Positions 3,001 to 26,160 of a DNA stretch of 58,914 bases are shown here, piece by piece. Numbering within the stretch: the stretch's first letter is position 1; each line of letters begins with the position of its first letter. The translations under genes were made by a program, and so were the position numbers. The stretch covers positions 1 through 58,914 of IMG/VR virus record IMGVR_UViG_3300023283_000071; one strand, 5' to 3'. Under the pieces are notes generated by a model that was not told the origin of the DNA, made no database searches, and worked only from the letters and a program-made list of their open reading frames with translations. Origin of the DNA: a virus.

Positions 3001-6000
3001 TCGGAGCGGATCCGGGGAACGTTCACGCCAACGAGTTGAACGAGGATCGCTCGGAAACGTTGGAGGCTCAGGGTTTCGGAAAAGTCACTCGCTTCGATGC
3101 GGCCACGGAGAATCCGGGGAAACAGCACGATGTCGTGCTCGCGAATCCTCCATTCGGCGTGGTGCACAACCCGGATGGGTCCGCCAAGAAATTCCCGATC
3201 CAGACTCACAAGGGGGAGAAGCGGACCACCCAGATCGACCATGCGATCGCGATGCGATCGCTCGCATCGATGAAGAAAGGCGGGACTGCGGTCCTGATCC
3301 TCGGCAGCGTACGCAAGACGGCAGCCTCAGAACAGGCCCGTTCGGACGCCTACCACAGCGCCCAGAAACGAGACTTCTTCTGGGCGCTGTATCACCAGTA
3401 CGAGGTGGTCGATCACTTCACCATCGCCGGCGAGCTCTACGAGAAGCAGGGCGCCGGGTGGCCGATCGACATCGTCGTGGTCAAGGGGCGGAAGGATGCC
3501 CCGGAGCAGACGCGCACCCTGCCGGCGAAGAACCTGCCGGACATCCTGCGCTCGTTCGCCGAACTTAAGGAGAGAGTCCGTGGGCACGAAGCTGGTTTAT
3601 ACCGACCCGAATCCGAGGGCGTGGGCGCCGGAGAGCAATCCGGCGGCCCTCGTGGTTCAACTGAGGCCGAAGGACGGCCTGAATCTCAACCTGGTGCGGT
3701 ACCTGGACCTGTTGCGAGACCGGGTGGCGTGGCTGGCGCAGGGACAGGAGGAGGACGCACTGGGGGCGGCGGCCGATCGTCTGGAACCGCTGCTGGACCT
3801 GCCTCCAAGGGTGAGCAGCCCCCTGGCGTTCGCGGTGGACGTGAGGGACGACCTGAGCCTCCGGACGTGGTTGACCGTCCACGTGGTGCCCGAGGGGAAG
3901 GAGAACTGGAAGGCGAAGCCGAGCCCGGAGGCCTTGAAGGCGCTGAGGGGAGTAAGCCTGGGGCAGTGGGTGGAGAGCCTGCTGGCGCTGGAGACCTCGG
4001 GCGAGAGCTGGAGTCAGCCAGCGAGGAGGACATCGACAGCCTGATCGACGACGCCCTCGGGGAGGCGGCCCCGGAACCAGCCGAGGCTCGCCCGGAGCAG
4101 AAGAAGGAATCTCTGAAGGGCGCTGCATCCGAATCGGGAAAGGCGATCAGCAGCGCGCTCGACGCCATCTGGGAGTCGACCGGCGGGGGCTCTCCAGCCA
4201 CCTTCAAGTCCGGTCCGTTCGCCTTCGACGAGCAGGGTTACCAGAGGATCAAGGGACACCTCAAGGCGTCTCTCGAGCACACCGTCGCCGCCGGCGGCCA
4301 TCTCAAGGACTTCATCCAGGCCGTGTTCGCGGATGCTGCCCGCTTCCCTCGTGAGTGGGTCGAAAACCTGCTGCGACCGGCGGTCAAGCGGTTCGTCAAC
4401 GAGGTGAACAAGGGGCTCATTCTCATCAAGGGCCTCAATGACCACAAGAAGCGGGTCCAGCAGCAGGACAAGCCCACCGAGCACCAGGTGTCCTACGAGC
4501 CGGGAAGCGATGGTACCCCTGGCGGCACCTTGATCCCAAAGAACATGCGAACGGCTGTCAAGGAGTCGCTCGGAGACGTGAAGAAGCGCAGGGGTCCGCT
4601 TTCAGAATACGTCATGGCTCGACTTGGCTACACGCGCGAGCAGCTTGACGAATACTTCCTGGCAGAGCAGATCGACGCGCTCGCGCTCGCGATCGACAAC
4701 ATGGAGCGCGGCGGGGCGTTCATCATCGGAGACCAGACCGGAGTCGGAAAGGGGCGAGTTGTTGCCGGAGCCCTGCGCTACGCCATGCGCCAGGGGAAGG
4801 TCCCTGTCTTTGTCACCGAGAAAAAGAACCTCTACAAGGACATCTACCGGGACTTTGTGGACATCGGCATGGGGGACGTCACTCTGTTGATGACGGACGC
4901 CAGCGAGAAGGTGTTTCTCACCGACGATAAGTCGATCTCCCTGCGTACCCCGGACGCACAATCCCACAACGCCAACCTGATTCGGATTGCTAGAGGAGTT
5001 CAGGGACTCGATCAGGCATTCGAGAACGTGCCTGCAGACGTGATCGTCACCACGTATTACCAGATGCAATCGGAGAAAGGGGCGCTGACGCCAAGACGAG
5101 AGTTTCTGAACGCGATCGCTCCGAACGCGATGTTCGTCTTCGACGAGACACACAACGCCGGCGGAACGGAGACCGTGAAGCGAGACGCTGATGGCGCGCC
5201 AATCATGGACCGTGCCCGCTACGTGCGCCATCTGGCAGCTACCGCGTGGCAGGTTTTCTTCTCGTCCGCGACGTACGCGAAGCGGCACGACGTCATGGAC
5301 CTCTACGCCCGCACGGACATGCGCTATGCGGTATCCAGCATCGAGGGCTTGGGAAATGCGATAAAGAAGGGAGGAGTGCCTCTGCAACAGGTGGTGGCGT
5401 TGATGTTGGCGAAAGCCGGCCAATACCTGCGCCGAGAGCGTAGCTTCGACGGGATCGAGTACAGCACTCCACTGGTTGAGGTGAACCAAACCGCATACGC
5501 GAACTTCTCCAGGACGATCGAGGCGATCCATGAGTTCTCGAAGCAGGTCGAAGTGGTCACGTCTCACATCGACGACGAGCTGAAAGGTCAGGGGATGCAT
5601 GCCGGTGCCGATCAGAGCACGGGAGGAGCGGGGGCCGAGAGCACCAAGTTCACGTCGATCATGCACAACTTGATCTCGCAGCTTCTGCTTTCGCTCAAAG
5701 CTCAGCCCTCTGTGGATATGGCGCTCGAAGCAATCGCCAACGGGCAGAAGCCTGTGATCACCGTGTCGAACACCATGGGATCGTTCCTCGACGAGTACGC
5801 CGAGGCGATGGAGCTGAACAAGGGAGATCTGGTCGCTCTGAATTTCACCGACCTTCTCAAGCGTTATCTCGACAAGACACGAACCATCACGAAGCGAGAG
5901 CCGTTCGGAGAGGCCGAGCGCCACTATCTGACGGACGAGGAGCTCGGCCCTCAAGGAGTAGCCCTGTATAACAGGATTGCCGACTTCATGGCATCCCAGG

Positions 6001-9000
6001 ATGAGATGAAGTCGTTGCCGGTCAGTCCGATCGACTACATCATCGACAAGATCGAGCAGGCGGGCCACACCATCGGGGAAATCACTGGACGCGAAAAGCG
6101 GGTTCGTATGGAACGCTACGAGGACCAGGACGGTAAAACGGTAGAGCGTCCGGTCCTCGACCGCCGGCCCGATTCAATTTCCTTGCGCATCGAGACGATC
6201 CTCAGATACAACCAAGGAGGGGAGAACGGTCTCGATGCGTTGATCATCAACCGGGCCGGATCTACAGGGATCTCCCTGCATGCTTCGGAGAGTGTGGGGG
6301 ACCAGCGCCAGCGCACCATGATCATCGCGCAGCCCGAGGATAACATCGACACGCACATGCAGGTCTTGGGGCGCATCAACCGCACCGGACAGGTGGTGAA
6401 GCCCCGCTATCTGCAACTGGTCGCTGACATTCCCGCCGAGAAGCGGCCTGCCGCTGTGCTCTCGAAGAAGATGGCGAGCCTGAACGCCAACACGACGGCG
6501 GCCCGATCTAGCTCGCTGACGGCTACCGATGTTCCGGACTTCATCAACGAGTATGGAGACGAGGTGGTCGGGCAAATCCTCGACGACGATATGGAGCTGT
6601 TTTACAGGCTCGACGTCAACGCCAAGCTGAGAGAAGGGACGATCGCTCGAGAGGATCTGGCACGCAAGACGACCGGCAGGATCCCGCTACTTCCGATCGA
6701 GGATCAGGAGGCCCTATACGACAGGATTGAGAGCGATTACAAGGAACTGATCGCGCAGCTCGACGCCACCGGCGCGAACACCCTGGAGGCGAAGTACCTA
6801 CCCCTCGACGCCGAGGAACTGAACCGCAAGCAACTCAAGGAACCGCTGTCCAATGTTGATTCTCCGTTCGCTGAGGGGGCGGATGCGGTCCGGTACCGCA
6901 TCAACGTGCTCGGCAGACCCTATCCGACGTCGAAGGTGCTTAGAGATCTGTCCGAGCGCCTCGGACGAGGCTACAGCGAATCGGAGAGTCCCGAGGAAGC
7001 CGCGACCGCGCTACGGCAGCTAGGTCGCGAGGGACGTCGAAAGATCCTTCAGGACGCGAAGGTCGAGTTCGAGTCCTACAAGCGGGAGGTGGTGGACCAG
7101 ATAAAGGACGAAGGGAAGGCGCGGAAAGAGGAAGCGAAGCTGGATCAGCAGTGGGAAAGGTTTGCTGCCACGATCAAGCACATCTTCCCTGGCAACCAGG
7201 TGCAGCTTGATGCGCACTCGGGGCGCACGTTGGGCACGATCATGGATGTCGTGCCGACCGGCGAGACGAAGAATCCGATCGCCGGCGGCGGTTGGAAGGT
7301 AACGATCTATCTGGTCTCGAGCGCGCGCCAGATCACGCTACCGCTATCTCGTCTCAAGCTGTTCGGCACCGTGGCCGGGCAGAGCATGCAGGAGAAGATA
7401 CAGGGTATCGGCGCGACCTCGTTTATTGTGGGAACGGCTCCGGAACTGCAGACCCCGATCATCCTCCGCTACGACGAGATGCAGGAGCAGCGCCGGGAGG
7501 AGCGATGGATCGTCACTGGGAACCTGCTCGCCGGATTCGACGCCGCCGGCGCCAAGGGTCAGATCATCACCTTCGAGACCCGAGAGGGGACTGTGGTATC
7601 GGGCATCATGATGCCCAAGGAATGGGACGTGGACGCGGCAATCGGGGGACAGCCGGTGCGGTTCTCGGAGGCGTCTCAGGTGGTCGCCTACGTGGCCCGG
7701 GTACGAAAGTATCCCGCGTTCGCCGCCGACAACATCGTCAGGATCATGGACGACAAGGGCCAGGGGATCCGAATCCTGGTCGAGCCTTCCCGCAGCACCG
7801 GCGGGAAATACTACATGAACGAGGGGGTGCTCGAGGCGCTCGGAGAGGACTTTGTTTCTTCCGGCTCCAGCATGGTCGCCCGGGTTTCCTACGACGGTGC
7901 CCAGAACGTCGTCCAGGCACTCATGGACGCCGGCGCGGAGTTTGAGGCCCGCACCGAGAAGGACATCGCCCGCCAGATCGCGGGCTTGCCGCCGGTCCAG
8001 GAGGCGAGACGAAGCGCGCCGGCGGCGGCCACGGGGCGTTCGACCACCGTCCGCCAGGCTCGGGAGGCGATCGCTGACCAGGTGGGCGAGAAGGCGCTGC
8101 GCCACCTCGAGCAGCTCGGCGTGATCACGCTCGTCCAGTCTCGCGGCGAGCTCCCCGAGCACCTCCAGAAGGACGCCGGCGCCGGCGTGTACGACTTCGA
8201 GAACCACCGCGCCTACCTGGTGGCCGACGAGATGGGCAAGGAGGACGCCTACGGGCTGTTCCTGCACGAGGTGGGGGTCCACTACGGTCTCGAGGGGTTG
8301 CTCGGCGAAGATCTGTTCGACCGGGTGCTACGGCAGCTTCGCGGCCTCGAGGCGTCGGGGAACAACGCGGCTCGGAGGGCCCGCGAGCAGGCCAGGAAGA
8401 AGCGGTCGGACGCCAGCGAGGACGAGGAGACCCTCGCCTACGTGGTCCAGGACCCGGCGAACCACAAGCTCTCGCTGGTACGCCGGGTGGTGTCCGGGAT
8501 CCGGGCCTTCCTGTTCCGCATCGGCGTGGTGAAGCGGCTGTCCATCGACGACATCGTGATGTTGGTGCGCGCTGCTGCGCGCCGGCCTCGGCCCCAGACC
8601 GAACGCCGTGCCCGGAAGGGTGCACGTGCCCATTCGGTGAGGATGCCTACCGACGAGCAGGAGCGTCGGTACCAGGAGGCCAAGAAGGGTCTCGGAGATC
8701 AGCGAAGCCTTGTTCAAAGGGTCCGGGACCACATAACGCACACGTGGCATGGGATCAGCCGGCACTTCATTGAGCTTCCAAACACGCCGTTCTTCGCTCC
8801 CGCGTTCGAGATTCTGAGAGAGTTCGAGGCTGCCCCGGAGGCGGCTAAAGAAGAAGCCGTGCGCAGGTTGCAGAGGGTTGTGGGAAAGTTCAACGACAAG
8901 GATCTCGACCTGTTCACCAGAAAGGTTCTTCTCGACGATCTCCAATGGGAGATTGACAACGAGCACGAGTTGCCCTTCGCCTTGAGCCCTGAAGACCACG

Positions 9001-11729
9001 CCGCCGCCAAAGCCGACGTTGATGCAGCGGTGGCCGATAACCCGGACGTCCAGGAAGCAGTGCGCACGCGCTCCCGATTCCTGGCCGATCTGCGAGACAG
9101 GCTGGTTGAGGCTGGGGTGTTGTCTGAGGAACGGGCAAACAACCCGCACTACTTCCGGCACCAAGTTCTGCTCTACGCGAGATTGAATCAACGCGGCCAG
9201 AGCGCACGGAAGGTGAAGAAGCCGAGACCAGGCTACGCGATGAAGCGCGAGGGATCTCTACACGACATCAACGCACACTACATCGAAGCCGAATTTGACT
9301 TCATTCATCGCGCCCTGATCGACCTGAAAGCAGTATCAACGATCGCCAAAATTGACGACCGTTACAACATCCAGGGAGATCTCAAGAACAAGGCCCGCAT
9401 GGCGAACACCGCGGCGATGGAGGGCATCATCGCACAGGACATCGAGGAGAACGGGTGGGAGCTTGAAAACGGAAATCGCACCAGCCCGCTCGACCAACAG
9501 TGGAAGGGGTACAAGCAGCGCATTGCCAGGGGGACACAGAGTCTCGGGAAAATGCTGCTGGCCGATGGGGCCCCGGAGGTGCCGTCTCAGTATCAGGCTG
9601 CCGTCGAGGAGTTGATCGACTCGGCGCGGGAGCACCAGGAGCAAGCGGCCGAGGGAGTGCCTCTGGAGGAGCGAACTCAGATCGGCGCGATCAGCGACGA
9701 GGCTCAGGCGCAGTTGTTCCCGCTGTTGAGGTGGCTTCTACAGAACGACGCGACCGGCGCGGCTCCCGCGGGAATGATTCTGAAGGCCGTGAGCGAACGG
9801 CGGGAGTTTCTGAAGGAGAGTCTCGGGAAGAACTACAAGACGTGGAGAAGCCTAGTCCCTGACGGCTACGTCACGTGGCAGCCTGAGAAAGGCAATATCT
9901 TTTACACCGCCAAGACGTTCGGCGAAGACGTGATGAATCGCCTTCTAGGGATGGCCGAGGAATACGCACCTGCCAGTGTGGATAAAAGCGCCATACGGGA
10001 CGTAGTGGGGCGTATGAAGGACGCCGTCGTACTTGGTCAGAAAAAAAAGGAACTGGTCATCCCGGAGGAACTAGCAGCCACTCTCGAACACATGGCGCCA
10101 GATCCGCATGATGGACTGTTTGACCATCTATTCGGTGATCCGTTGAGGTGGTGGAGGCAGTGGGTGCTGATCAACCCGAGGCGGGTCCTCAAGTACAACC
10201 TCAACAACCTGTCCGGAGATCTGGATGCGGTGATCGCGGGGGCGCCCAGCGTTCTAAAGAAATTGCCGAGGGCGATCCGAGAATTGTACGATGTGATGCA
10301 CGATCGCGCAGAGCCCTCCGAGCTTTTTCGAGAGGCCGTGGACCGGGGAGTTTTCGACTCTGGGTTGACGATTCAGGAGATCCCGGACATCAACTATCTG
10401 TCGAAGTTTCGCAACCTGGTCAAAAAATCCACGCTCAGAGAGCCCGGTAGGTTCACTGTCAGTAACATCGCCAGAGTGTGGCATGGCCTTCGTGACTACA
10501 CCCGGTTCCGGGAAAACTGGATGCGCTACGCGGCCTTTCTACATTATGTGGAAAAGCTCGACAGCGGAGTCCCATTGGAAAACATTGGGTTCGGAGGCTC
10601 TAATCCCGACGCCGTAAAGGCGATCTATGAATCGGAAGGACCTCATGCCGTAGCGGGGCTACTCGCCCGCGAGCTCGTGGGGGATTACGGCGCGGTCAGT
10701 CACTACGGACAGGAGATTCGGCAGAAACTTATCCACTTCTACTCGTGGATGGAGATCAACACGAAGCGTTACACCAGGTTCTTCCGTAACGCATGGGAAC
10801 AGGGCTTCGGAAGTACCGCGAGGGTAACGGGAGTGCTAGCGGCTTCGGTCGCAAGAAAAGGGGCGCTCCTAACGGCAGGGCTCTACGTGAGGATGTTTCT
10901 GCTGTTCATGATCCTGAATGCGTGGAATCATCTGATGTTCGGCGACGAGGAAGAAGAACTAAATGACCACGATCGCGTTCGTCTCCACATCATTCTTGGG
11001 CGCAGCGATGACGGCACCATTCGCCTGATCCGCTTTCAGGGCGCGCTGTCCGACTTCCTCGACTGGTTCGGGTGGCAGGAGGCGGTGGCGGTCATGTCCG
11101 CCGTCGAGAAGGGGCGCGGCACCGCAACCGATCTACTCGAGACAGTTGCCCAGGCGCCAATCAATAAGATCTTCATGGGATTGACGCCCGTCATCAAGAC
11201 GCCCTTGGAGTTGATGTCCGGGCTAAGTTTTTTCCCGGACGTCTTCAACCCGAGGCCGATACGCGATCGCGGCCGGCACGTAGCTCGGCTGTTCTCCGCG
11301 GAACATGAATACGACGTGTTCACAGGCAGGCCGTCGAGAGGCTATGCGCAGTCCCTTGAGGAAACCGTCATTGTCCGCAGGGACGCTGGCGAGATCGCCT
11401 ACAACAAGATCAAAGGGCTCGAGTATGACTGGGCGGAAAAACAGCGCGGCACGTCCGGTTTTTCCACTATACAGACCGCACGGAGCCAGGCGACGTACCG
11501 CTGGAAGATCGCGACGAGGTACGGGGACAAGGATGCGGCGAAGCGCGCCATGGCAGATCTTAAGGCCATGGGCGTGACGAAAAAAGACATCAACAGAATC
11601 GTGAAGCGGGGTCGCCCTCTGGGAGTGATCGCCGCCAGGGACCGCGGGCGATTCCTCCAGAGCCTGACTGCGAGGGAGCGTGAAACGCTGGAAGCCGCAA
11701 AGCTTTGGTACAAGGACACGTTCCGCTAA
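18..11729 (+). CDS. Giant polyvalent multi-domain protein with a family-I pyrophosphatase-like module, N6-adenine DNA methyltransferase, SNF2/SF2 helicase, HExxH zincin-like module and a long C-terminal region with hydrophobic helices. This is the 3' part of an ORF that starts at 58349 across the circular junction.
   Basis: Uninterrupted 3903-codon ORF. Motifs read directly: YGYIRGTTGFDKDHLDVFL (nt 1995-2051; compare PPase YGFIPxT..DGDPxDV); EPSAGNGAL plus NPPF (3144-3155), which are amino-MTase motifs I and IV; GDQTGVGKGR Walker A (4728-4757); DETH (5142-5153); QVLGRINRTGQ helicase motif VI (6360-6392); HEVGVH (8265-8282). The frame is open from nt 1, so the Met at 18 is internal. Confidence 0.9.
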   Translation: MSPATRKALDEFAQDIARPAAMVQNQAGVEPPATAPPPEIEESAGYWASTKRGMATAAYGVSEALSLVGDVLGVEAIEERGEAGAQYWKKVLERPELQRPEFMRHGLVEGLKRRPLDYSINLLLENIPLLVTMMSGGGVAGVVAARALPAAVKAGIKAGNPAAISRARKTIGRAAMGGAAPTAGAIEGGFARGEALEAGATDEQALEVALRVGVINAALEVTPIGLLFRNPAGRRLITRIGQQIVAEAGTEAVQEFNNNLQHMLVHQPDKTLEDLFEGTPEAAYAGGLIGALMGAGGAWYNRGAPEEEGGAASVRGATGDGGYYTREIDAGDPDAPTELAGGTSATQEGPDTDRPTDLAGNPEAPPEPSGGPPQGPSGPTGGPPQGVAPGEPPPDFDLQPPGPQPVPGAVGAPQPPPPGPPAAPAAPTESVEPIPAPPTTPEQFQPTHTTPEGTEIMAGEGGYYTREIDAESGERRPVLKFHEGTTVTTREGRQVPIAEMEVTPAEERRRLEAAGQGKLPIPEPRETIDEAEGDAAASPENQRPEPTPAQKEAGNYPKGHVKLHGRDLSIETPRDSHRWQLATERLKMMAEQEHKDDNVSRFIRKALRLLEKNETVPEGFDVLRRMVGLSDKPGDWATEVRDELRGILDRGWIQKMSHTYGYIRGTTGFDKDHLDVFLHPDVESRPDAPVFVVNQQDEAGEFDEHKVMMGFTSEAEARKAYLENYPKGWEGLDSVVQLTPEQFDQWARSDAPKKGKLEGPPETAVPKPGKGEKPPPSPERPFTPTHELPDGTPVRHVEDDVYVDAQGQEWEEPNAAPIETEPDDDREDLAKEEPPEESPEDEGTPTEPDDDREDVASESERLAGEFQHFFAGADNSFKDIREARKWAGERLGRKVAPGTADAKLVDESMEAGLVRAAREIVRSGRKNNRTWDVIFDRLVNLYERQPRLGVRTSTSVSQQAYSTPMPIAWAVSVIADVGENTTVYEPSAGNGALLIGADPGNVHANELNEDRSETLEAQGFGKVTRFDAATENPGKQHDVVLANPPFGVVHNPDGSAKKFPIQTHKGEKRTTQIDHAIAMRSLASMKKGGTAVLILGSVRKTAASEQARSDAYHSAQKRDFFWALYHQYEVVDHFTIAGELYEKQGAGWPIDIVVVKGRKDAPEQTRTLPAKNLPDILRSFAELKERVRGHEAGLYRPESEGVGAGEQSGGPRGSTEAEGRPESQPGAVPGPVARPGGVAGAGTGGGRTGGGGRSSGTAAGPASKGEQPPGVRGGREGRPEPPDVVDRPRGARGEGELEGEAEPGGLEGAEGSKPGAVGGEPAGAGDLGRELESASEEDIDSLIDDALGEAAPEPAEARPEQKKESLKGAASESGKAISSALDAIWESTGGGSPATFKSGPFAFDEQGYQRIKGHLKASLEHTVAAGGHLKDFIQAVFADAARFPREWVENLLRPAVKRFVNEVNKGLILIKGLNDHKKRVQQQDKPTEHQVSYEPGSDGTPGGTLIPKNMRTAVKESLGDVKKRRGPLSEYVMARLGYTREQLDEYFLAEQIDALALAIDNMERGGAFIIGDQTGVGKGRVVAGALRYAMRQGKVPVFVTEKKNLYKDIYRDFVDIGMGDVTLLMTDASEKVFLTDDKSISLRTPDAQSHNANLIRIARGVQGLDQAFENVPADVIVTTYYQMQSEKGALTPRREFLNAIAPNAMFVFDETHNAGGTETVKRDADGAPIMDRARYVRHLAATAWQVFFSSATYAKRHDVMDLYARTDMRYAVSSIEGLGNAIKKGGVPLQQVVALMLAKAGQYLRRERSFDGIEYSTPLVEVNQTAYANFSRTIEAIHEFSKQVEVVTSHIDDELKGQGMHAGADQSTGGAGAESTKFTSIMHNLISQLLLSLKAQPSVDMALEAIANGQKPVITVSNTMGSFLDEYAEAMELNKGDLVALNFTDLLKRYLDKTRTITKREPFGEAERHYLTDEELGPQGVALYNRIADFMASQDEMKSLPVSPIDYIIDKIEQAGHTIGEITGREKRVRMERYEDQDGKTVERPVLDRRPDSISLRIETILRYNQGGENGLDALIINRAGSTGISLHASESVGDQRQRTMIIAQPEDNIDTHMQVLGRINRTGQVVKPRYLQLVADIPAEKRPAAVLSKKMASLNANTTAARSSSLTATDVPDFINEYGDEVVGQILDDDMELFYRLDVNAKLREGTIAREDLARKTTGRIPLLPIEDQEALYDRIESDYKELIAQLDATGANTLEAKYLPLDAEELNRKQLKEPLSNVDSPFAEGADAVRYRINVLGRPYPTSKVLRDLSERLGRGYSESESPEEAATALRQLGREGRRKILQDAKVEFESYKREVVDQIKDEGKARKEEAKLDQQWERFAATIKHIFPGNQVQLDAHSGRTLGTIMDVVPTGETKNPIAGGGWKVTIYLVSSARQITLPLSRLKLFGTVAGQSMQEKIQGIGATSFIVGTAPELQTPIILRYDEMQEQRREERWIVTGNLLAGFDAAGAKGQIITFETREGTVVSGIMMPKEWDVDAAIGGQPVRFSEASQVVAYVARVRKYPAFAADNIVRIMDDKGQGIRILVEPSRSTGGKYYMNEGVLEALGEDFVSSGSSMVARVSYDGAQNVVQALMDAGAEFEARTEKDIARQIAGLPPVQEARRSAPAAATGRSTTVRQAREAIADQVGEKALRHLEQLGVITLVQSRGELPEHLQKDAGAGVYDFENHRAYLVADEMGKEDAYGLFLHEVGVHYGLEGLLGEDLFDRVLRQLRGLEASGNNAARRAREQARKKRSDASEDEETLAYVVQDPANHKLSLVRRVVSGIRAFLFRIGVVKRLSIDDIVMLVRAAARRPRPQTERRARKGARAHSVRMPTDEQERRYQEAKKGLGDQRSLVQRVRDHITHTWHGISRHFIELPNTPFFAPAFEILREFEAAPEAAKEEAVRRLQRVVGKFNDKDLDLFTRKVLLDDLQWEIDNEHELPFALSPEDHAAAKADVDAAVADNPDVQEAVRTRSRFLADLRDRLVEAGVLSEERANNPHYFRHQVLLYARLNQRGQSARKVKKPRPGYAMKREGSLHDINAHYIEAEFDFIHRALIDLKAVSTIAKIDDRYNIQGDLKNKARMANTAAMEGIIAQDIEENGWELENGNRTSPLDQQWKGYKQRIARGTQSLGKMLLADGAPEVPSQYQAAVEELIDSAREHQEQAAEGVPLEERTQIGAISDEAQAQLFPLLRWLLQNDATGAAPAGMILKAVSERREFLKESLGKNYKTWRSLVPDGYVTWQPEKGNIFYTAKTFGEDVMNRLLGMAEEYAPASVDKSAIRDVVGRMKDAVVLGQKKKELVIPEELAATLEHMAPDPHDGLFDHLFGDPLRWWRQWVLINPRRVLKYNLNNLSGDLDAVIAGAPSVLKKLPRAIRELYDVMHDRAEPSELFREAVDRGVFDSGLTIQEIPDINYLSKFRNLVKKSTLREPGRFTVSNIARVWHGLRDYTRFRENWMRYAAFLHYVEKLDSGVPLENIGFGGSNPDAVKAIYESEGPHAVAGLLARELVGDYGAVSHYGQEIRQKLIHFYSWMEINTKRYTRFFRNAWEQGFGSTARVTGVLAASVARKGALLTAGLYVRMFLLFMILNAWNHLMFGDEEEELNDHDRVRLHIILGRSDDGTIRLIRFQGALSDFLDWFGWQEAVAVMSAVEKGRGTATDLLETVAQAPINKIFMGLTPVIKTPLELMSGLSFFPDVFNPRPIRDRGRHVARLFSAEHEYDVFTGRPSRGYAQSLEETVIVRRDAGEIAYNKIKGLEYDWAEKQRGTSGFSTIQTARSQATYRWKIATRYGDKDAAKRAMADLKAMGVTKKDINRIVKRGRPLGVIAARDRGRFLQSLTARERETLEAAKLWYKDTFR

Positions 11730-11980
11730 TCGGCGAGTCCGTAGTACTCCAGTTTGCTCCGAAGTGTCTTCCGGTTTATCCCAAGAACAAGCGCCGCCTT
11801 GCTCTGGTTTCCGTGACAGAAGGACATCACGGCCGAGAGCGCCGGGATCTCGATCTCCCGGATCAGCACCCGATAGAGGTGTCCGGGATCCGTTTCGTGT
11901 ACGCGCGCCACCAGCGTCGATGCCACGGAATCTCGTACGTGCTCCCGGAGCGCGATATCGGGGTTCTTCTTGCTCAGCAT
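11726..11980 (-). CDS. Fis-family small HTH DNA-binding protein
   Basis: Track ORF 11726..12112 trimmed to the ATG at 11980, which lies 1 nt after the upstream TGA. LYRVLIREIEIPALSAVMSFCHGNQSKAALVLGINRKTLRSKLEYYGL aligns with E. coli Fis [48 protein letters not shown]. Its stop overlaps the stop of the convergent giant ORF. Confidence 0.8.
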   Translation of the reverse strand: MLSKKNPDIALREHVRDSVASTLVARVHETDPGHLYRVLIREIEIPALSAVMSFCHGNQSKAALVLGINRKTLRSKLEYYGLAD

Positions 11981-11981
11981 G

Positions 11982-12359
11982 TCAGGTGCACGGCGGCCAG
12001 TATTCGCGAGCAGATCCGTAGTGCTTGGCGACGAAGCCGACCCGGCCGTAGTGACGCCCGTCGAGGCGATAGAAGTTCTCTGCGAGCCACGCCGGGCGCT
12101 TCTCGAGGTCATCCGGGTAGAGCGTAGCCGAGAGGGCGAGCTTCGCGGCCTCGGCCGCCTCGTCCGCCTCGGCCATGATGCCGTCCGTGCGGTAGATCGT
12201 GTTCGTCGCCGGATTCCACAGGGCCCGGCCGCGCGTTCCCTCGGGGCGCATCGCGCGCATCTGCTCCCACGTCACGACCTCGACCGTGGGCTGGCTGACG
12301 GGCACTGGCTCGAGCCCCAGAAGGGCGAACACACACAGCATGTTGATGGCGGATTCCAT
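11982..12359 (-). CDS. Hypothetical protein with a hydrophobic, signal-like N-terminus
   Basis: Track ORF 11982..12401 trimmed to the ATG at 12359, which is preceded by GAGGAGG. The N-terminus reads MESAINMLCVFALLGLEPVPV. No family recognised. Confidence 0.55.
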   Translation of the reverse strand: MESAINMLCVFALLGLEPVPVSQPTVEVVTWEQMRAMRPEGTRGRALWNPATNTIYRTDGIMAEADEAAEAAKLALSATLYPDDLEKRPAWLAENFYRLDGRHYGRVGFVAKHYGSAREYWPPCT

Positions 12360-12369: not shown

Positions 12370-12774
12370 TCAGTAGATGGTCTTGATGGCCCAGCGAACA
12401 TCGCAGGGCCAGCAGATGCCTGCCTCTGGCCCGAGTTCTACGCCGTCTTCCCTGGCTTCGTTGCAGTCCTTGTACTTCTTCTTCCCTTTCCGGATCGGTC
12501 CCACCTCGCATGGAGTTGCCCGCAACGTAGCGACGATGCGGGCGAGTGCCGGCGGGTACTCGCCGAACGAGATCCACGAGGGGGTGAGGGACAGCGCCTT
12601 CGCCAGCTCCGGGATTATCCGCGGGCGCAGCGACTTCCCGTTCTCGATCTTCTGAATGACCGGCTGAGAGGTCCCGGCGCGAGCGGCCACGTCCTCCTGC
12701 GAGAGTGACAGCCTCAGTCGGGCGTCACGAACCCGATCGCCGATCGTCGCGCGGCTGCTTGAGTCGGTTTTCAT
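12370..12774 (-). CDS. XRE/Cro-CI family HTH regulator with a Cys-rich C-terminal extension
   Basis: [41 protein letters not shown] is a classic XRE HTH. The C-terminus has four Cys (CEVG..C..CWPC). The ATG at 12774 lies 47 nt inside the 3' end of the csrA-like gene. Confidence 0.8.
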
Positions 12775-12907
12775 CGCGGCTGATCTCCACGTGTCTAGGG
12801 GCCTCGATTCCGATACGTACGGTGTTCCTGTCGATCGAGAGGACCGTAACGACGACGTCGTCGCCGATGTAGATGGACTCCGGTGGCTTGCGAGATAGTA
12901 CGAGCAT
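12725..12907 (-). CDS. csrA: CsrA/RsmA-family RNA-binding translational regulator
   Basis: [46 protein letters not shown] aligns residue for residue with E. coli CsrA [46 protein letters not shown]. The ATG at 12907 shares one nt with the sbcC-like TGA (TGATG). The track start at 12910 is an upstream GTG. Confidence 0.9.
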
Positions 12908-15363
12908 CACAGCCTCCCGAAATTGATCTGGTGGTCAGCCATCTGCTGAACCTCGGGGGTGTGAGAAATGAAGAACTCGCCCTCGTACCCGCCGAGCCGG
13001 AGGACCTCGCGCTTCATCGCCACCAGCTCCAGCTTCTTCTCGTGGTCGAGCGCGCCGTCCATCTCGTCGGTAAAGATGGTTCGGTATCTATGCCCGGATG
13101 ACTGCGCCAGGTAAAGGGCGATGGCCTTCATCAGGGCCTCGTCCACGTAGACCTTCTGCCCTCCGGACATGGAGCGGACGGACTTCGAGGTCTCCCCCTC
13201 GGCGTCGTGGACGACGATGTCGAAGTCCTCCTTCATGTCGCCGGTCTTCTTCACCTCGCTCTGAGTCTTGAAGCTCACCGTGTACCGTGAGCCGAAGCAT
13301 GCGATCAGCAGATCGTTCGCCAGCGACGAGATCGCCGGCCCGGCGTCGTCGATGCACAGTGCGATGATCCCGTCCGTGGAGAGAGCGGTCGAGAGCTCGT
13401 GCCAGTACGGCAGTTCCCTCTCCAGCGTCTTCACCTCCTCGCGAACGCAGGCGAGCCGTTCCAGGTGCTCCTCGCAGGACCGTATGCTTGCGCGGGCGGA
13501 CTCCTCGGCTGTCTTCGCAGCCGAGAGATCGGAATCCGACGCAGCCGCTTCGCTCTCTGCCGAGCGTACGTGTTCGCGCGCGCCTTCCAGGGCGGCAGCG
13601 TCGTACGCCGGGATCGCTTCGATCTGCGCGTGGATCTTCGCGGCCTGCTCCTCGCCTTTCTTCTGGAGATCATGCAGTTTCTTCGCGTGCCGATCCTGTG
13701 CTTCAAACTCCGCGGTTGCGGCGCTTTTGATGGCGGCATCCTGCCGTTCCTGTTCTTCTGCGGCGGCGGCCGCGTCAGTCTCGAGGTGGCCTCGCTCCTC
13801 CTTGGCGCCCTTCAGTGCCGATTCATCGGCCGCGAGTTCTCGTTGAGTGGTGAGCTTCGCGTAAGCGTCCTTCCTGGTCTCGTCCATATCGGAGAGGGCA
13901 CTCTCCGTCGTGTCCGCCTCGTCGAGCCCCTTCTCCTCCCTGTACGTTCTGGCACGCTCCTTGAGGTCCTCGTACTGCTGCAGCATCTCGTCCTTCTCGG
14001 CCGAGATTTGAACGGCTCGCTTCGACGCATCCCTCGCATTCCCGAGTAGCTGGCAGGTCTGGTTCATCTCGGTGCCGACGCACGGCACCTCCTCGATCAG
14101 GCGGCTGCGCTCCGAGGCGTCCTCGAGCTTCTCGGCCAGGTGCTTCCCCTTGGCCTTGATCTCCTGCCCGTCTGCCTGCATACGCTGCAGCTCGCGCTCG
14201 GCCTGGTAGCGGACGTCGCGCGCCACACGCGCTTCGTCCATCTGGGCTGAGATCTTCTCGATCTCTGCCTCGAGTCGCTTCACCTCCTCGGCGGCGCGCC
14301 GGATCTGGCTCTCGCGGGCGAGAAGCCGGTCCTTCTCCTCGATCCGACGTCGGATCTCCTGTGTCCGGGCGGCGGCCCGATCTCGCGCCCGAAGCGCCTC
14401 CTGGTGGGCGTGGGAAAGCCGCTGCTGCTCGTCACGGGACTCGGCGCGGTACTTGGCTACCTCCTGCTCCGTCGCCTCCTGTGCGGCCTGTAGCTCGCTC
14501 TCGAGGGCACGCCGGCGCTCGATGTCAGCCTCGGCCGCCTTTGCCCGCTCCTCCTCCCTCACGAGGTCCTCGCGGGCGCGCGTGAGGGCTTCCTCCCATT
14601 TCTTGTGCGCCGCAACAAGCCGCTCCACCTCGGCCGCCTTCTCGGCCTGATCCGAGCGCGCCTGCTTCAGGCGTGCCTCGGTGCTCTCGACGTCCTCCCG
14701 CGTGCTCCTGTGGGCCTCCAGGCGCGCCCTGAGCCCCCTCCTGACCTCCCGGGCCCGGTCGCCCAGGGCCTCCACCTCGGCGAGCCCCAGGAGCTCGCTG
14801 AGGAGCCCCTTGATGTCGCTCTGTCGGTAGGTGGAGAGGTGGCCCCGCCCTTGTGCCGAGAAGACCGACGAGAAGAACAGCTCCGGCGATCCGAAGATCG
14901 AGCTTACACAGGCGTCGTGGGTGTCCGTCTTCCCGTCCGAGGTCGTCCCATCCGGGAGGGTGACGGGCTCCCACTCGGCATTGCTGAGATCGAGCGAGGC
15001 ATCCACACGACGAGAGGCGCGGTGTATCTGGAGGTATGCCTCCTGCTTCCTGGACTTTCCCCCGCCGTGGATCAGCACGATGGAGCGATACGCCTCACCT
15101 TCGTGCTCGCACGCAAACTCCTTGCGGGCTTTCAGATGGGTCTGGTCGTAGAAGCTGAATGCTCGCGGCGAGTAGGACGAAGCTCGCGATGGCATGAGCC
15201 GGTACGGGTGCATGTTGTCGAGCACCGTCGTCTTCCCACGGCCGTTCGGCCCGACCAGGGCCACGAGCCCCTCGTAGCCAGCGAGATCGATCTCGAACGA
15301 GTCGCGCCCGAGGCCGTCCCGGATACCGATGAAGTTGTCGAGCTTGAGATAGAGGGGCTTCAT
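12907..15363 (-). CDS. sbcC: SbcC/Rad50-family ATPase (SMC-like, long coiled coil)
   Basis: N-terminal Walker [12 protein letters not shown], a central E/A/R/K-rich coiled coil of about 450 aa, signature SMSGGQKV and Walker [11 protein letters not shown] at the C-terminus. There is a 4-nt overlap with the sbcD-like gene. Confidence 0.85.
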
Positions 15364-16613
15364 TCCAGGTGCTCCAGGGCCACGAGCTTCTCCACCGGAG
15401 TCTCCGACTGGAGCAGCGCAAGCCGCTGCATCAGCTCGGCTTCATGGTGGCGCGAGTCCGTGACCTCGATCCATCGATCGAGTCGTTCGTGCATCCCCGT
15501 GGCCTGGGTGATCCCTGCCGCCCGCTGCCGCTGGATGGGCAGCACCCGGGGCTCGCACTTCAGTTCTGCCGCGGCCTCGAACAACTCCTCTATCGCGGCC
15601 CGGTCCACCGAATGGGCGTGCTCCTCGTCCACCGACCACCGCAACCGCACGTGGGCATCCTTGGCCTCGGCGGCGATGCGCTTCACGATCTCCATGTCGG
15701 GTGGTCCCTCAAACGTGTGCTCGACCAGCCGCTTCGCCGGCGTCTCACAGAGCGCGAGCGTCGCCACCTGTCCATCGTGGCTGAATTCCCACCGCAGCCA
15801 GCCTTTCGGATCCACTTCGCCAAAGTGGAGTCGGCCGATGGAGCCCGGGTAGGCCCCTACCATCCCGTCGCGGCTCCAGGACTGGTGCTTGTGGATGTGG
15901 CCGAGCATCACGGCCGCGGCCTCGGAGGCGAACAGAGTGGCCTCGGTGAACTCGTGGTCGAGTCCGTGCATCGGGACTCCCTGCTCGGTCACGGAGCCGA
16001 CCACGGTGCCGTGAGAGAGCAGTACGGTCGGTGGAATCGACGGGCGGCCGCTCCGCATGATCTCGTTTGCCGGCGCGAAGGCGCGGAGCATCTGGTGCAC
16101 CGCGTCCCCGGCGGCCTCGGCCGCCTCGTCGGCCCCCACGGTTGCCGCGAGCGCCCCTTTGTGAATGGCCGGCAGACAGGAGAACAGCGCCAGGATGGCG
16201 CCGTCGAGATCGTCCAGCTCATGCTTGGTGAAAGTGGTGGCGTGGCTGGCGATCCACTCGAGGCCGTCGTTAGCGTCCTCGATCAGCACCACCTGGGAGA
16301 TCCGATCTGCGACCCACACCGGGTAGAGTGGCGTGAGGGTCCTGAATACGTCCAGGCTCCCCGGGACGTCGTGGCTGAAGGTGCCCTGGAGGATGATCAC
16401 CGGCATGTAGCTGGCGAGATCGTAGACCTCGGCAAGAAGGGCCGAGACCGCGGGCGAGTGCACGTCGAGGCGACGGTCGAACAGATCGCCCGTGATCACG
16501 CCGATCCCGCACTGCTCGTTGCAGGCGCGGGAAACCGCGTGATGGAAGCACCGACGCACCTCGGCGAGGTACGGATCGCAGAAGTGGAGGTCTGAGAAGT
16601 GGGCGATCTTCAT
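15360..16613 (-). CDS. sbcD: SbcD/Mre11-family metallophosphoesterase nuclease
   Basis: MKIAHFSDLHF, GDLFDR, and later GHIH/HG motifs typical of calcineurin-like nucleases. It sits directly upstream of the sbcC-like gene. Start taken at the ATG at 16613 rather than the TTG at 16622. Confidence 0.85.
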   Translation of the reverse strand: MKIAHFSDLHFCDPYLAEVRRCFHHAVSRACNEQCGIGVITGDLFDRRLDVHSPAVSALLAEVYDLASYMPVIILQGTFSHDVPGSLDVFRTLTPLYPVWVADRISQVVLIEDANDGLEWIASHATTFTKHELDDLDGAILALFSCLPAIHKGALAATVGADEAAEAAGDAVHQMLRAFAPANEIMRSGRPSIPPTVLLSHGTVVGSVTEQGVPMHGLDHEFTEATLFASEAAAVMLGHIHKHQSWSRDGMVGAYPGSIGRLHFGEVDPKGWLRWEFSHDGQVATLALCETPAKRLVEHTFEGPPDMEIVKRIAAEAKDAHVRLRWSVDEEHAHSVDRAAIEELFEAAAELKCEPRVLPIQRQRAAGITQATGMHERLDRWIEVTDSRHHEAELMQRLALLQSETPVEKLVALEHLE

Positions 16614-16626
16614 GGTTCGCAATTCT

Positions 16627-16911
16627 TCACTTCTTCGTCTTGCCCGTCTTCGCCGGCGGGATCGAATCGTCGTCCGGGATCACCTCGGTCTCCTCATGCT
16701 TGTCGAGCTTCCACTGCTCCCACCCGAGCACGTGCCGAACGATCTGAGGGATCAACCGCTTGCCGTCTGCCTCGCGCTCGCTCGCGTACACTCGAGCGAA
16801 GCTTTCCGCGTCCGGCGTGATCCGGATGATGTGCTCGTGGCGCTCGGCCTCCTCCAGCGTGGCGAACGTCTCGCCGTCTGCGGCCACGAACTGCTCTATG
16901 GATTTGACCAT
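16627..16911 (-). CDS. Hypothetical protein
   Basis: 94-codon ORF packed tightly between neighbouring genes. No motif recognised. Confidence 0.55.
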   Translation of the reverse strand: MVKSIEQFVAADGETFATLEEAERHEHIIRITPDAESFARVYASEREADGKRLIPQIVRHVLGWEQWKLDKHEETEVIPDDDSIPPAKTGKTKK

Positions 16912-16923
16912 GATCTCCTCCGG

Positions 16924-18060
16924 TCAGAATGGTATATCGTCATCGAAGTTTTCTATGGAGTCTGGGTGGATGTCGTTCGCTTCTGCGTCCTCCGACGGAG
17001 TCGGGTCGTCCGCGGCGACATCGTCTATCGGCTCGTCCTCGCGCCGGTGCTCGAGCGCGGGCGCGGGCGCGGAAGCCTCCAGTCTCCTTCTCTCCTCGGC
17101 CGCGGCGAGCGCCGCCATGTCGAGCGGGACGTGGAGGTGGATCAGCCACTGCGGGGTCTGAACTGCCTCGCCCGTGGAGAGATCGATCCGCGACACCGTG
17201 TCCCACACCTTGTGCACCCAGAAGATGGGCTCCGCGCGGCCGTCAGGGAGTCGCGCCATTCCGGCAATCCGGCCGCGCACCCCCTCGATCTCCTCCATCT
17301 GTCCCATCCACTGATTCATGCTGTAGTAGCTCGTCGTGCGCAGCTCGCACGCCGCCCCGAGCGGGACTCCGGGGATGTAGAACAGCAGGCGGCCGGCGAG
17401 CCTGCACTTCGTTTCCTGGTACTCCGGACAGATGTCCGGCAGGCACTTCCCTTTCGGGTCGAGGTCGGTGCGGATCTCGATGGGTCGCCCCTGCGACGGA
17501 CGGCGCGCGCGGCGCGCCTTGCCTTCGCCGACCATCTCCACGGAGCCCCACTGTTTGCAGTAGCGCACTCCGTGCTCGTCGTACTCCGACCAGTAGGTGA
17601 GCTTGGTCCCCTTCATGCAGCGGTATTCGTGCGGCATGTTGCTGAGCCATTCGTCGGACGAAAGCACGACGGGGAACCGATAGAGCATCGGCTCGTCCGG
17701 GTACGGCTCGTCGTTGTCGGGGCGGACTCCCTTCCTCACCTCACCGTAGAGCTTCAGGAGGAGGTCCACGTGCTCGCGCGACGGAAAGTCGCTCTCGATC
17801 ACGTGGAACCATGGAGTGTTGATCGGATAGAACGGACGACTCCGGAAGTCAAACGTCGTCCGCTCGTCCTTGATGATCGCCCGCTCGATTCTGTCGATCG
17901 GGACTCCGTTCTTCTGCCCCTGCTCGAAGATGTACTTCGCCCGCTTGTCCTCGAGGAGCTTTTTGCTCGGCACCTTCGTGCCCGGGCGGATGCGCCCGGC
18001 GATCGGTGCCTGGCGCGGGCGGCGCTCGGCACTCTCCCCCAGGATCGAGTGTTTCGTCAT
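16924..18060 (-). CDS. Putative ssDNA-binding or recombination-mediator protein ending in a bacterial SSB-type C-terminal tip
   Basis: 378 aa. An acidic tail ends ...NFDDDIPF (E. coli SSB ends DFDDDIPF). The N-terminal part does not resemble an SSB OB-fold by eye. It is the first gene of the operon that carries sbcCD. Confidence 0.5.
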   Translation of the reverse strand: MTKHSILGESAERRPRQAPIAGRIRPGTKVPSKKLLEDKRAKYIFEQGQKNGVPIDRIERAIIKDERTTFDFRSRPFYPINTPWFHVIESDFPSREHVDLLLKLYGEVRKGVRPDNDEPYPDEPMLYRFPVVLSSDEWLSNMPHEYRCMKGTKLTYWSEYDEHGVRYCKQWGSVEMVGEGKARRARRPSQGRPIEIRTDLDPKGKCLPDICPEYQETKCRLAGRLLFYIPGVPLGAACELRTTSYYSMNQWMGQMEEIEGVRGRIAGMARLPDGRAEPIFWVHKVWDTVSRIDLSTGEAVQTPQWLIHLHVPLDMAALAAAEERRRLEASAPAPALEHRREDEPIDDVAADDPTPSEDAEANDIHPDSIENFDDDIPF

Positions 18061-18086: not shown

Positions 18087-18115
18087 ACGATACTCCTTGC
18101 CGAAGGCAGAGTCAA
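18087..18115 (-). promoter_or_regulatory. Sigma70-like promoter for the leftward SSB-tail/sbcDC/csrA operon
   Basis: Minus strand reads TTGACT (18115-18110), a 17-nt spacer, then TATCGT (18092-18087), about 27 nt upstream of the ATG at 18060. A divergent TTGCCG-N18-TAAGTA (18097-18126) overlaps it on the plus strand. Confidence 0.4.
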
Positions 18116-23008: not shown

Positions 23009-23317
23009 CTATCGACCACGGTGCATCTGGAGGCGGTGGAGCTCTCGTCGTTCGATGTTGCGCACCTCCCGCGAGGGTCCTCCGATGGGCACGCACACGG
23101 TGATGCAGGCCCAGTTCAGCGGACAGCCTCGGAGCCGTTTCGTCGCCATCTCCAACGATGCCAGGGCTCGCGAGATCGCCTGCCTGTGGTGCCCCGTCTC
23201 CCGTGCCGCATCCGCGACGGTGTACCCCTCGACCAGCACGAGGCGCGTCCCCTCGATGGTCTTGTGGGAGCGGAGGTAGCTCCGCTGCAAAGCCTGCTGG
23301 AATTGGAAGGGGGTCAT
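23009..23317 (-). CDS. KorA/TrfB-family HTH repressor (IncP-plasmid type)
   Basis: FQFQQALQRSYLRSHKTIEGTRLVLVEGYTVADAARETGHHRQAISRALASL aligns with RK2 KorA SQFQEAIQGLEVGQQTIEIARGVLVDGKPQATFATSLGLTRGAVSQAVHRV. It is the last gene of the leftward small-gene operon. Confidence 0.65.
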   Translation of the reverse strand: MTPFQFQQALQRSYLRSHKTIEGTRLVLVEGYTVADAARETGHHRQAISRALASLEMATKRLRGCPLNWACITVCVPIGGPSREVRNIERRELHRLQMHRGR

Positions 23318-23321
23318 GAGC

Positions 23322-23873
23322 TCATGCCATCAGCCTCTGCACCTTGACGACCCGGGTGTCGAGCCAGGACATGACCTGCCGCACGGAGAGGGTGAAGGCG
23401 GAGTGATCCATGTGTGCGATCACGTCCCATTTTAAGCTCTGGTGGTACCTCAGCGCGTAGTCGTCGGCGCGGATCCGGCTGCCGGTCATGTAGAGCATGG
23501 AGCGGTGCAGGATGGCGAGCGCGAGATCCGCCGGTCCGGAGCCACCATGGCCCCACGAGAAGCCGGTCGGGGAGTGCCGCTGGAAGCCATCGATCACGGG
23601 CATCCTGAGCGGGGCGGCGTGCCCGTACGTGTCGATGAACGTCACCTCGTGCTCCTTGCGTCCCTCGAATCGCGCGCCGGAGACATACCTCGCATGGTGC
23701 TCGGCGCAGCGGTACCCCCCCACCTGGACCAGCTCGCCCTCGAACACGGCGATTACCTCGTCCAGATCGTGGACGGAGAGCGCGAGAGATGCGGCCTCAT
23801 CCGGGGTATCGGCATCGACGCGCTCAGTGAGCGGCTGATCGTCGGCGGTCAGTCCTACGATGGTGTAGATCAT
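23322..23873 (-). CDS. Hypothetical protein
   Basis: Track ORF trimmed to the ATG at 23873, which overlaps the upstream stop as TAATG. Contains GFSWGHGGSGPADLALAIL. No confident family. Confidence 0.6.
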   Translation of the reverse strand: MIYTIVGLTADDQPLTERVDADTPDEAASLALSVHDLDEVIAVFEGELVQVGGYRCAEHHARYVSGARFEGRKEHEVTFIDTYGHAAPLRMPVIDGFQRHSPTGFSWGHGGSGPADLALAILHRSMLYMTGSRIRADDYALRYHQSLKWDVIAHMDHSAFTLSVRQVMSWLDTRVVKVQRLMA

Positions 23874-24571: not shown

Positions 24572-24761
24572 GTGGTTCCTCCCAGGGGCCGCGCTCGAGT
24601 TCCTGCCCGTTGAGCAGCATCTCGCGCGTGGCGCCGCAGTTGCACAGCTGGATGTATCGCCCACCTCCGTGGGCGCGTGGGTTCTGGTCCTCACGGCGGG
24701 CGACCGGGCCCCGGAACACATAAGGTCCGTGGCCGTGGTGAGCGACGTGCCGGTGCTTCAT
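24558..24761 (-). CDS. Hypothetical small His-rich protein
   Basis: ATG at 24761 (MKHRHVAHHGHG...). A 10-codon upstream ORF (24790-24758) with a strong GAGGAG is ATGA-coupled to it. Confidence 0.45.
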   Translation of the reverse strand: MKHRHVAHHGHGPYVFRGPVARREDQNPRAHGGGRYIQLCNCGATREMLLNGQELERGPWEEPREHD

Positions 24762-24799
24762 CGCCACAGTTCCAGATCGGGCTGAGTCATGTCGGCTCC

Positions 24800-25027: not shown

Positions 25028-25042
25028 GACTTATCCTCCTCT

Positions 25043-25608: not shown

Positions 25609-25639
25609 GTCGTGTCTCCTCTCTCTCTCGTTGGTGGGG

Positions 25640-26140: not shown

Positions 26141-26160
26141 GTCGTGTCTCCTCTCTCTCT

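Follow-up and report, generated by a model that had tools for sequence, protein, structure and literature searches.

The stretch of DNA analysed here, the 58,914 nucleotides (nt) of IMG/VR virus record IMGVR_UViG_3300023283_000071 (hereafter, the window), encodes a 60-amino acid (aa) homologue of the regulator CsrA, and sequence and structure comparisons indicate that this open reading frame (ORF) is a genuine and probably functional gene of the CsrA/RsmA family, serving as an accessory regulator. The interpretation that we favour, with a probability of about 0.6, is that csrA is an accessory gene of the phage whose product is expressed early and reprograms the host at the level of translation. 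A previous model-made reading of the letters alone (the sequence-only reading) had already described the gene as a phage-borne csrA homologue, coupled to an sbcC-like gene and overlapped by a gene of the XRE type, and each of these elements was recovered in our analysis. The csrA locus comprises the following features:

12725-12907, minus strand: csrA homologue, 60 aa, identified by PF02599, PHROG 9500, PDB chain matches and AlphaFold/Foldseek
12913-12917, minus strand: Shine-Dalgarno (SD) site of csrA, GGAGG, read in the sequence 5 nt 5' of the ATG and within the sbcC 3' end
12725-12774, minus strand: csrA/xre overlap, read in the sequence, in which csrA codons 45-60 plus the stop codon are shared with the first 16 xre codons

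The affiliation of the protein to the CsrA family was evident from profile searches, in which Pfam PF02599 scored 78.3 bits over profile positions 1-46 of 53 (gathering cut-off 27, E-value 4.1e-22) and PHROG 9500 ('CsrA-like regulator') was matched with an E-value of 2.4e-17. A phmmer search against PDB retrieved CsrA, RsmA and RsmE chains, aligned without gaps over residues 1-47 (E-values from 5e-11 to 6e-9), the remaining matches being weak local alignments to ribosomal protein S1 (E-values of 1e-4 or higher). The AlphaFold model, obtained with 60 homologues as input, had a mean predicted local distance difference test (pLDDT) score of 85.5 and was confident for residues 1-50; it contains the five beta strands and the C-terminal alpha helix of the CsrA fold, the helix being limited to residues 45-50. 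The fifteen best Foldseek matches of this model in PDB were all CsrA/RsmA/RsmE chains, with template-modelling (TM) scores of 0.59-0.78 for ranks 1-14 (0.68-0.78 for full-length chains) and root-mean-square deviations (rmsd) of 0.6-1.9 Å; rank 15 corresponded to a nuclear magnetic resonance model (TM 0.52, rmsd 4.0 Å). Furthermore, residues 1-10 were modelled with confidence and without an intramolecular partner, as a strand-swapped dimer would give in a prediction made on the monomer.

The residues on which RNA binding and structure depend are, residue 47 excepted, all kept in the window CsrA (L2, L4, R6, K7, A36, V40, I42, R44, and E46). Of these, L2, L4, R6, A36, R44, and E46 are invariant in the family, V40 falls within the variation tolerated there, and K7 and I42 are common variants among homologues. 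Mutagenesis has shown that RNA binding relies on L2, L4, R6, R7, V40, V42, and R44, and that R6 and E46 form a salt bridge (PMC7652899, PMC6692469). Compared with the cellular proteins CsrA of E. coli, RsmA of P. aeruginosa (1VPZ/7YR6), RsmE of P. fluorescens (2JPP) and CsrA of Geobacillus (5DMB), the window protein belongs to the same family and shares their key residues, with 45-55% identity without gaps over residues 1-47, TM scores of 0.75-0.78 and rmsd values of 1.0-1.9 Å. Unlike them, it is encoded by a phage within a nuclease operon, and has a helix of about six residues and an asparagine at position 47. The sequence-only reading had aligned the product with E. coli CsrA across the whole RNA-binding fold; this alignment held for strands beta1 to beta5 and the first helical turn, and failed for the C-terminal helix, which is not conserved. 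The shortened helix together with Asn47 suggests that affinity or specificity may differ from those of cellular CsrA.

Inspection of the csrA gene (60 codons plus stop) allowed us to define its start. The mechanical ORF listing opens the frame at GTG 12910; since the ML N-terminus is invariant in the family (L2 in 120 of 120 homologues, M1 in the alignments of 48 and 60 sequences), the start is assigned to ATG 12907 and the GTG was discarded. This ATG (12907-12905) shares one base with the TGA stop codon of the sbcC-like gene (12909-12907) in a TGATG arrangement, as had been noted from the letters. At the other end, the csrA codons for D45 and E46 supply the ATG of xre (12774), which is the only possible start of that gene, so that xre begins 47 coding nt inside csrA (50 nt if the csrA stop is counted), also as described before. 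Since codons 45-60 overlap xre, the C-terminus of CsrA is an alternative frame of the xre 5' end. A CsrA-XRE fusion by frameshifting was considered and dropped, as the sequence has no slippery heptamer and xre is read in the +1 instead of the -1 frame. The G+C content at third codon positions (GC3) of csrA is 0.73, consistent with a coding sequence.

The csrA gene is the fifth of eight tightly packed genes on the minus strand, whose counterpart in related phages is an early recombination and replication module. The other members of this operon, and a promoter candidate upstream of it, are the following:

16924-18060, minus strand: Gp3-like protein (PF18897, E-value 2.1e-18), first gene of the operon and equivalent in position to that of related modules
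16627-16911, minus strand: orf94, backed by the GC3 profile and the source gene call, no family match
15360-16613, minus strand: SbcD/Mre11-like metallophosphoesterase (Pfam Metallophos, PHROG 100, gene call), whose stop overlaps the sbcC start (ATGA)
12907-15363, minus strand: SbcC/Rad50-like ATPase, 818 aa (PHROG 77, E-value 3.9e-29; homologues of 805-835 aa)
12370-12774, minus strand: XRE-family regulator with an HTH_3 helix-turn-helix (HTH) domain, 134 aa (Pfam HTH_3, E-value 3.7e-12; homologue alignment)
11982-12359, minus strand: orf125, from the source annotation, with no Pfam match and, in an extended form of 139 aa, no PHROG match
11726-11980, minus strand: Fis-type HTH_8 DNA-binding protein, 84 aa, closing the operon (Pfam HTH_8, E-value 2.2e-10, gene call)
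18087-18115, minus strand: sigma-70-like promoter candidate TTGACT-17-TATCGT, upstream of the operon (9 of 12 consensus positions in a consensus scan)

The promoter candidate is weak evidence, one site having been found where 0.8 would be expected by chance.

The SbcC-like family to which the upstream gene belongs consists of homologues 36-40% identical to the window protein, several of them named exonuclease SbcC, and the named relatives come from beta- and gammaproteobacteria. We compared the region 12907-18060 of the window with contigs L053, L054, L132-L134 and a JGI 3300045391 contig. An early module formed by Gp3-like (PF18897), SbcD and SbcC genes, usually followed by SSB, was conserved in many phage or prophage contigs, at SbcC identities of about 37%. 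The slot directly 3' of sbcC is variable, and may be occupied by CsrA, an HNH nuclease, a LexA_DNA_bind-type regulator or an RNase_T-WYL protein. Two independent contigs with an SbcC 37-38% identical to that of the window also carry csrA there: a 58-kb JGI contig with a 50-aa CsrA located 8 nt after sbcC, and a 45.6-kb temperate-phage contig with a 61-aa CsrA placed after sbcC and two small ORFs. The gene is thus present at this slot in 3 of the 19 full-length module relatives, window included, and scanning of a CsrA profile built from 120 homologues over 63 IMG/VR and 10 metagenome loci with SbcC relatives revealed no further csrA. The idea of a conserved csrA-sbcC synteny is therefore only partly true. 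Leaving the window out, csrA was found in 2 of 18 modules, as compared with about 1.2% of phage genomes (PMC7366521), the loci not being independent of one another. The association is recurrent without being conserved, and the rate above background is suggestive. Since the CsrA from L053 (55% identity to the window protein) is no nearer to it than generic CsrAs are, inheritance and repeated insertion are indistinguishable. A bolder proposal, to which we give very little credence, is that the slot after sbcC, in an early module widespread among proteobacterial phages, is a dedicated site for small regulators, into which csrA would be repeatedly recruited through a functional tie to the nuclease module, the N47 CsrA and the overlapping XRE forming a coupled post-transcriptional and transcriptional switch that would also gate an early operon with hairpin leaders, described below. 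If this were true, the csrA of the slot could set the dosage of SbcCD, or silence RNA-encoded host responses to DNA breaks or host defence systems.

Phage-borne csrA genes are not new, as copies exist in GenBank and IMG/VR, in PHROG 9500 and in three papers. The sequence-only reading had suggested a survey of databases, and tblastn searches with the window CsrA (E-value limit of 1e-3 for GenBank) located csrA in 80 GenBank phage records, mostly from Pseudomonas and Vibrio phages and many already annotated as carbon storage regulator, and in 28 IMG/VR contigs. In published surveys, Sobrero and Valverde listed 30 csrA-carrying phages, or about 1.2% of genomes, including Bcep22, BcepIL02, DC1, and GP4 (PMC7366521), and Campa et al., using GenBank and IMG/VR, proposed that phage RsmA/CsrA proteins suppress host defences, on the basis of the repression of CRISPR-Cas by RsmA in Serratia; phage CsrAs were also found to correlate with hosts possessing CsrA (PMC8450108). 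In the IMG/VR loci, csrA lies directly upstream of YqaJ, PD-(D/E)XK or PolB-exo-like nucleases. In phi297 it is found in the early region on the cI/RecT side, and in PSTCR8lys near cI and an exonuclease. The position of the window csrA fits this early or recombination-proximal placement of the canonical-type phage csrA genes examined. The likeness extends to the CsrA/Rsm proteins of temperate phages (Pseudomonas phi297, F116, and YMC11/07/P54 'RsmM'; Vibrio phages; Providencia PSTCR8lys), which occupy an early position close to repressor or recombination genes, have about 60 aa or form the N-terminal domain of a longer protein (phi297, 123 aa), and are 42-52% identical to the window CsrA. The window differs from these in its lineage (no DNA similarity; large terminase, TerL, at most 42% identical), in the sbcC coupling, in the xre overlap, and in N47 and the short helix.

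In the mechanism that we propose, CsrA would be co-expressed with the SbcCD nuclease, its translation beginning by re-initiation, by direct initiation or by both. It would form the usual interlocked dimer, with beta1 of one subunit against beta5 of the other and two RNA-binding faces, and this dimer would bind GGA motifs at or near ribosome-binding sites. Its action would be exerted mainly on host mRNAs or host Csr small RNAs, redirecting translation early in infection, and Asn47 with the shortened helix may lower or alter its affinity. Host reprogramming by phage CsrA is a hypothesis already published (PMC8450108, PMC7366521, PMC11879866). As for an antagonist, no Rfam family reached its gathering score anywhere in the window, sponge RNAs of the CsrB/RsmY/Z type included, and no FliW was matched among the approximately 40 window proteins scanned, small ORFs being covered in part only. 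A complete Csr/Rsm system, in which CsrA is accompanied by a dedicated antagonist (a sponge RNA or a protein of the FliW/CesT type), was thus not recognised in the window, and any antagonist would be host-encoded or novel.

Several observations weigh against the proposed role. Asn47 is unique among 120 homologues, the other 119 having I (60), L (45), V (12), M (1), or a gap (1), so that the hydrophobic residue characteristic of the family at this position is missing, and the I47A change in E. coli CsrA is among the strongest RNA-binding defects (PMC6692469). The helix is predicted only at residues 45-50 and the tail of the protein is disordered. Furthermore, csrA is absent from 16 of the 19 related modules, and is therefore dispensable for the module. 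The gene has no close relative (best identities of 57-72%), for which reason purifying selection is not measurable, and the exact protein is recorded in a single Logan assembly (run SRR23862446), being otherwise a singleton. Finally, some csrA-carrying phages infect hosts without a chromosomal csrA (PMC7366521).

Part of this evidence could also be accommodated by a decaying or weakened passenger, in which the 3' end of csrA would have been overwritten on the joining of xre, and the truncated product would bind RNA poorly and have little role. Apart from Asn47, at a position where Ile, Leu, Val, or Met are otherwise universal, the amphipathic pattern of the helix is lost, residues 47-60 being an alternative frame of the xre 5' end; deviant or truncated CsrAs occur on other phage contigs (L025, with 46 aa; L020; and the 50-aa CsrA after sbcC), and most related modules are devoid of the gene. 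On the contrary, over 46 codons every other invariant residue is intact, the gene has a good SD site and start coupling, the AlphaFold model is confident for residues 1-50 and the GC3 value fits coding DNA, and the recurrence of 50-aa phage versions suggests that a minimal CsrA can be useful. A passenger of this kind is considered unlikely, and we retain a functional, host-directed regulator as the preferred interpretation.

An overlapped 3' end was also observed in a full-length homologue, P0012, present in Logan contigs L032/L033 (positions 1285-1759) and 58% identical to the window CsrA with 100% query coverage, tied in this with P0003 and P0015. The element carrying P0012 has ThiF-like and JAB-like genes, and the csrA 3' tail is overlapped by 59 nt by a downstream gene unrelated to xre. 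This suggests that C-terminal tails of CsrA are commonly unconstrained and overprinted.

According to the sequence-only reading, the conserved leaders of an operon of small genes at 23-28 kb are GGA-rich, and the phage CsrA could either shut off these early genes or reprogram host Csr targets. This feature was described as follows:

25024-28050, minus strand: repeated intercistronic leaders, the proposed CsrA targets, characterised by repeats, RNA folds and GGA statistics and not distinctive

The leader strings GAGAGGAGGA and GAGGAGAGGAGA cited in support are present, as is the pair of GAGGAGA copies, separated by 21 nt. Each leader consists of an upstream stop codon, TCAGGTC, a GC hairpin of 10-12 base pairs (bp), CGCGTGACCACC(CACCACC)AACGA, a GGAG-type SD site and the ATG. 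Five copies with the hairpin end at ATG 25027, 26140, 26936, 27522, and 27983, and a sixth copy (25605-25650) lacks it. Stems vary by compensatory changes, and RNA folds gave z-scores from -2.5 to -4.3 for four of the five hairpin copies. The module lacks a U-tail, matches no Rfam family and does not recur in IMG/VR, and a search with a 17-mer of the leader gave single, chance-like matches only. At the start of the first gene, the 18-nt string TGAAGCGAGGAGACCAC is duplicated exactly and in tandem at a spacing of 21 nt (28251-28289, minus strand), and this yields two GAGGAGA SD sites (28282-28276 and 28261-28255) and three in-frame ATGs (28289, 28268, and 28250).

These leaders are the basis of an alternative in which the phage CsrA would bind the GGA-containing leaders of the small-gene operon at 25-28 kb, shutting off early genes as a temporal switch. 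They are real, repeated and conserved, with one or two GGA at the SD site in each of the six copies, and a single CsrA dimer can bridge sites 10-63 nt apart (PMC7652899), an interval that includes the spacing of the GAGGAGA pair. The GGA statistics did not favour this alternative. A GGA at positions -20 to -4 is found ahead of 34 of the 48 curated phage genes, and for this reason the GGA of the leaders is read as that of ordinary GGAG-type SD sites. A(N)GGA motifs between -100 and +10 numbered 1-4 for leader genes, a range shared by the unrelated o384, o95, o373, and terL, and 3-5 for several genes of the structural and lysis regions, so that their density is no higher before leader genes than before structural ones. 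High-affinity CsrA sites have GGA in the loop of a short hairpin, in an ACA..GGA..GU context (PMC7652899), whereas in the leaders the GGA is located 3' of a very stable hairpin of 10-12 bp, in a CA-rich stretch predicted to be unpaired. The hairpin loops are devoid of GGA, and the bases on either side of the leader GGA differ from the ACA-R-GGA-UG consensus. The GAGGAGA pair has no special fold (z = -0.27), and the excess of GAGGAGA in the window is mild (30 copies vs 16.7 expected, with 2 of 100 shuffles reaching 30), corresponding mostly to SD sites and Glu codons. SD position, A(N)GGA counts and folds together rule out GGA-rich leaders as a distinctive signal of specific CsrA targets, and the claim was not sustained; a temporal switch acting through them is improbable. 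As CsrA targets, the leaders would be no better than most ribosome-binding sites of this genome, and their organisation appears suited to efficient translation or to the processing of mRNA.

Other characteristics of the small-gene operon were recorded. The leader module resembles start-associated repeats of some phages, which raises the question of whether it combines a processing or stabilising hairpin with a translation enhancer. Upstream of the operon lies a near-consensus sigma-70 promoter, TTGACC-17-TATACT (28442-28470, minus strand; 10 of 12 matches, 0.2 sites expected), which suggests that the host RNA polymerase transcribes the operon and that the promoters of this host are of the proteobacterial type. 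The part of the operon at 23009-26140 (minus strand) encodes a RadC-like JAB protein (25640-26140, E-value 1.7e-46), a DUF6166 protein (23322-24098) and a KorA/TrfB-like repressor (23009-23317), a gene set reminiscent of plasmid leading regions and anti-defence islands.

A regulatory circuit restricted to the csrA operon was also weighed, in which CsrA would mainly control the translation of its own operon (csrA itself, xre and the downstream HTH genes) as a post-transcriptional feedback on transcription factors. GGA is present in the SD sites of both csrA (GGGAGG) and xre (GGAGA, within csrA codons 40-42), E. coli CsrA autoregulates its own translation (PMC7652899), and other module relatives have regulators at the position after sbcC, namely the LexA_DNA_bind and WYL proteins. 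Nevertheless, in each of the two ribosome-binding regions the only GGA has flanks that depart from the consensus and is not presented by a hairpin, and the regions fold no better than shuffled sequences (z = -0.32 for csrA and +1.29 for xre). The csrA-xre pairing was not found elsewhere, the homologues of xre being chromosomal and without an adjoining csrA, and the nearest full-length CsrA homologue is overlapped by a gene of a kind unrelated to xre. Such a local circuit is considered very unlikely, and action on host transcripts is still preferred.

With respect to the XRE protein itself, its single start gives an N-terminal leader of 12-13 residues, of the same length as in homologues. The nearest homologues are chromosomal and not phage genes, and lie beside lgt and thyA/thyX and an RND (resistance-nodulation-division) efflux operon. 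They share a highly conserved core that includes ...PAWLMFG, and the window protein has a unique C-terminal region of about 60 aa with four Cys.

Among the widespread phage CsrA homologues, only gp28 of Escherichia phage PTXU04 has functional data, as Adler et al. observed smaller plaques after knock-down of this csrA homologue (PMC11879866). The PTXU04 csrA is three genes away from the giant polyvalent protein gp25, and the window csrA is three genes away from a 3903-aa polyvalent protein, a likeness by position only; the PTXU04 product was outside the 80 tblastn matches to the window CsrA at the limit used, and is therefore more divergent. A giant virion protein along with a CsrA-like gene is likewise found in the Bcep22-like podoviruses (BcepIL02 gp49, Bcep22, DC1, and Ralstonia GP4; PMC7366521). 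In these phages, the CsrA-like gene is part of the structural module, where it directly precedes the major head gene, and its divergent product is only 37% identical over 35 aa to the window CsrA. The window csrA does not have this Bcep22-type position, as it is located at 12.7 kb and not beside the major head gene. According to the curated gene map, there is no csrA between the portal (40046-42172) and major capsid (43910-44839) genes of the window, where only a 186-aa ORF and a 296-aa scaffold candidate are found, the CsrA profile not having been run over the whole window. By description only, the window csrA can also be likened to RsmQ of pQBR103 and to CsrT of the integrative and conjugative elements of Legionella, the latter mentioned in PMC7366521, as CsrA homologues on mobile elements; unlike the window gene, which is on a phage, those sit on conjugative elements. 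RsmQ is reported to seize global translational control of the host (PMC9928087).

Three features are new in the window, on the sequences compared, namely the position of csrA in the variable slot after sbcC, Asn47, and a C-terminal helix that the overlap with xre shortens to some six residues. The gene adds to the widespread phage csrA a new lineage and a new context, with translational coupling to SbcCD and recurrence of csrA at this slot in distant modules. It opens no new class of mechanism, and the specific tie to the leaders of the phage fails on testing. As a minimal CsrA occurring in nature, in which Asn47 is combined with a helix of six residues, it could be used to probe what portion of the protein RNA binding requires.

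The viral nature of the window, already apparent to the sequence-only reading, is supported by its complement of small terminase, TerL, portal/adaptor, tail-fibre and endolysin proteins, along with a major head protein (PHROG 267, E-value 2.9e-58) and an internal virion protein (PHROG 511, E-value 5.8e-123). The internal virion protein is 30-33% identical to its counterparts in Bcep22-like and Ralstonia GP4-like podoviruses, and the nearest relatives of the major capsid protein are from Rhizobium phages, with 47% identity. No relative at the DNA level was found among GenBank phages, TerL relatives from IMG/VR and GTDB genomes reached 42% identity at most and had no csrA nearby, and scans of IMG/VR and GTDB genomes with SbcC as single protein gave no close relative. 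No integrase was detected among the window proteins scanned. These comparisons indicate that the phage is tailed and appears to belong to a previously unsampled lineage, with no close relative in the collections searched. The nearest CsrA clusters are uninformative regarding the host, and named SbcC relatives point loosely to beta- and gammaproteobacteria.

The 3903-aa polyvalent protein is encoded at positions 18-11729 on the plus strand and contains an InPase domain, a methyltransferase-like region and a Strawberry-notch-type helicase (AAA_34 plus Helicase_C_4). The csrA operon is convergent with this gene, and the stop codons of the polyvalent protein and of the Fis-type HTH protein overlap at 11726-11729, so that terminators have no space between them. 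The closest phage match of the polyvalent protein is a Bacteroides phage protein, with 33% identity.

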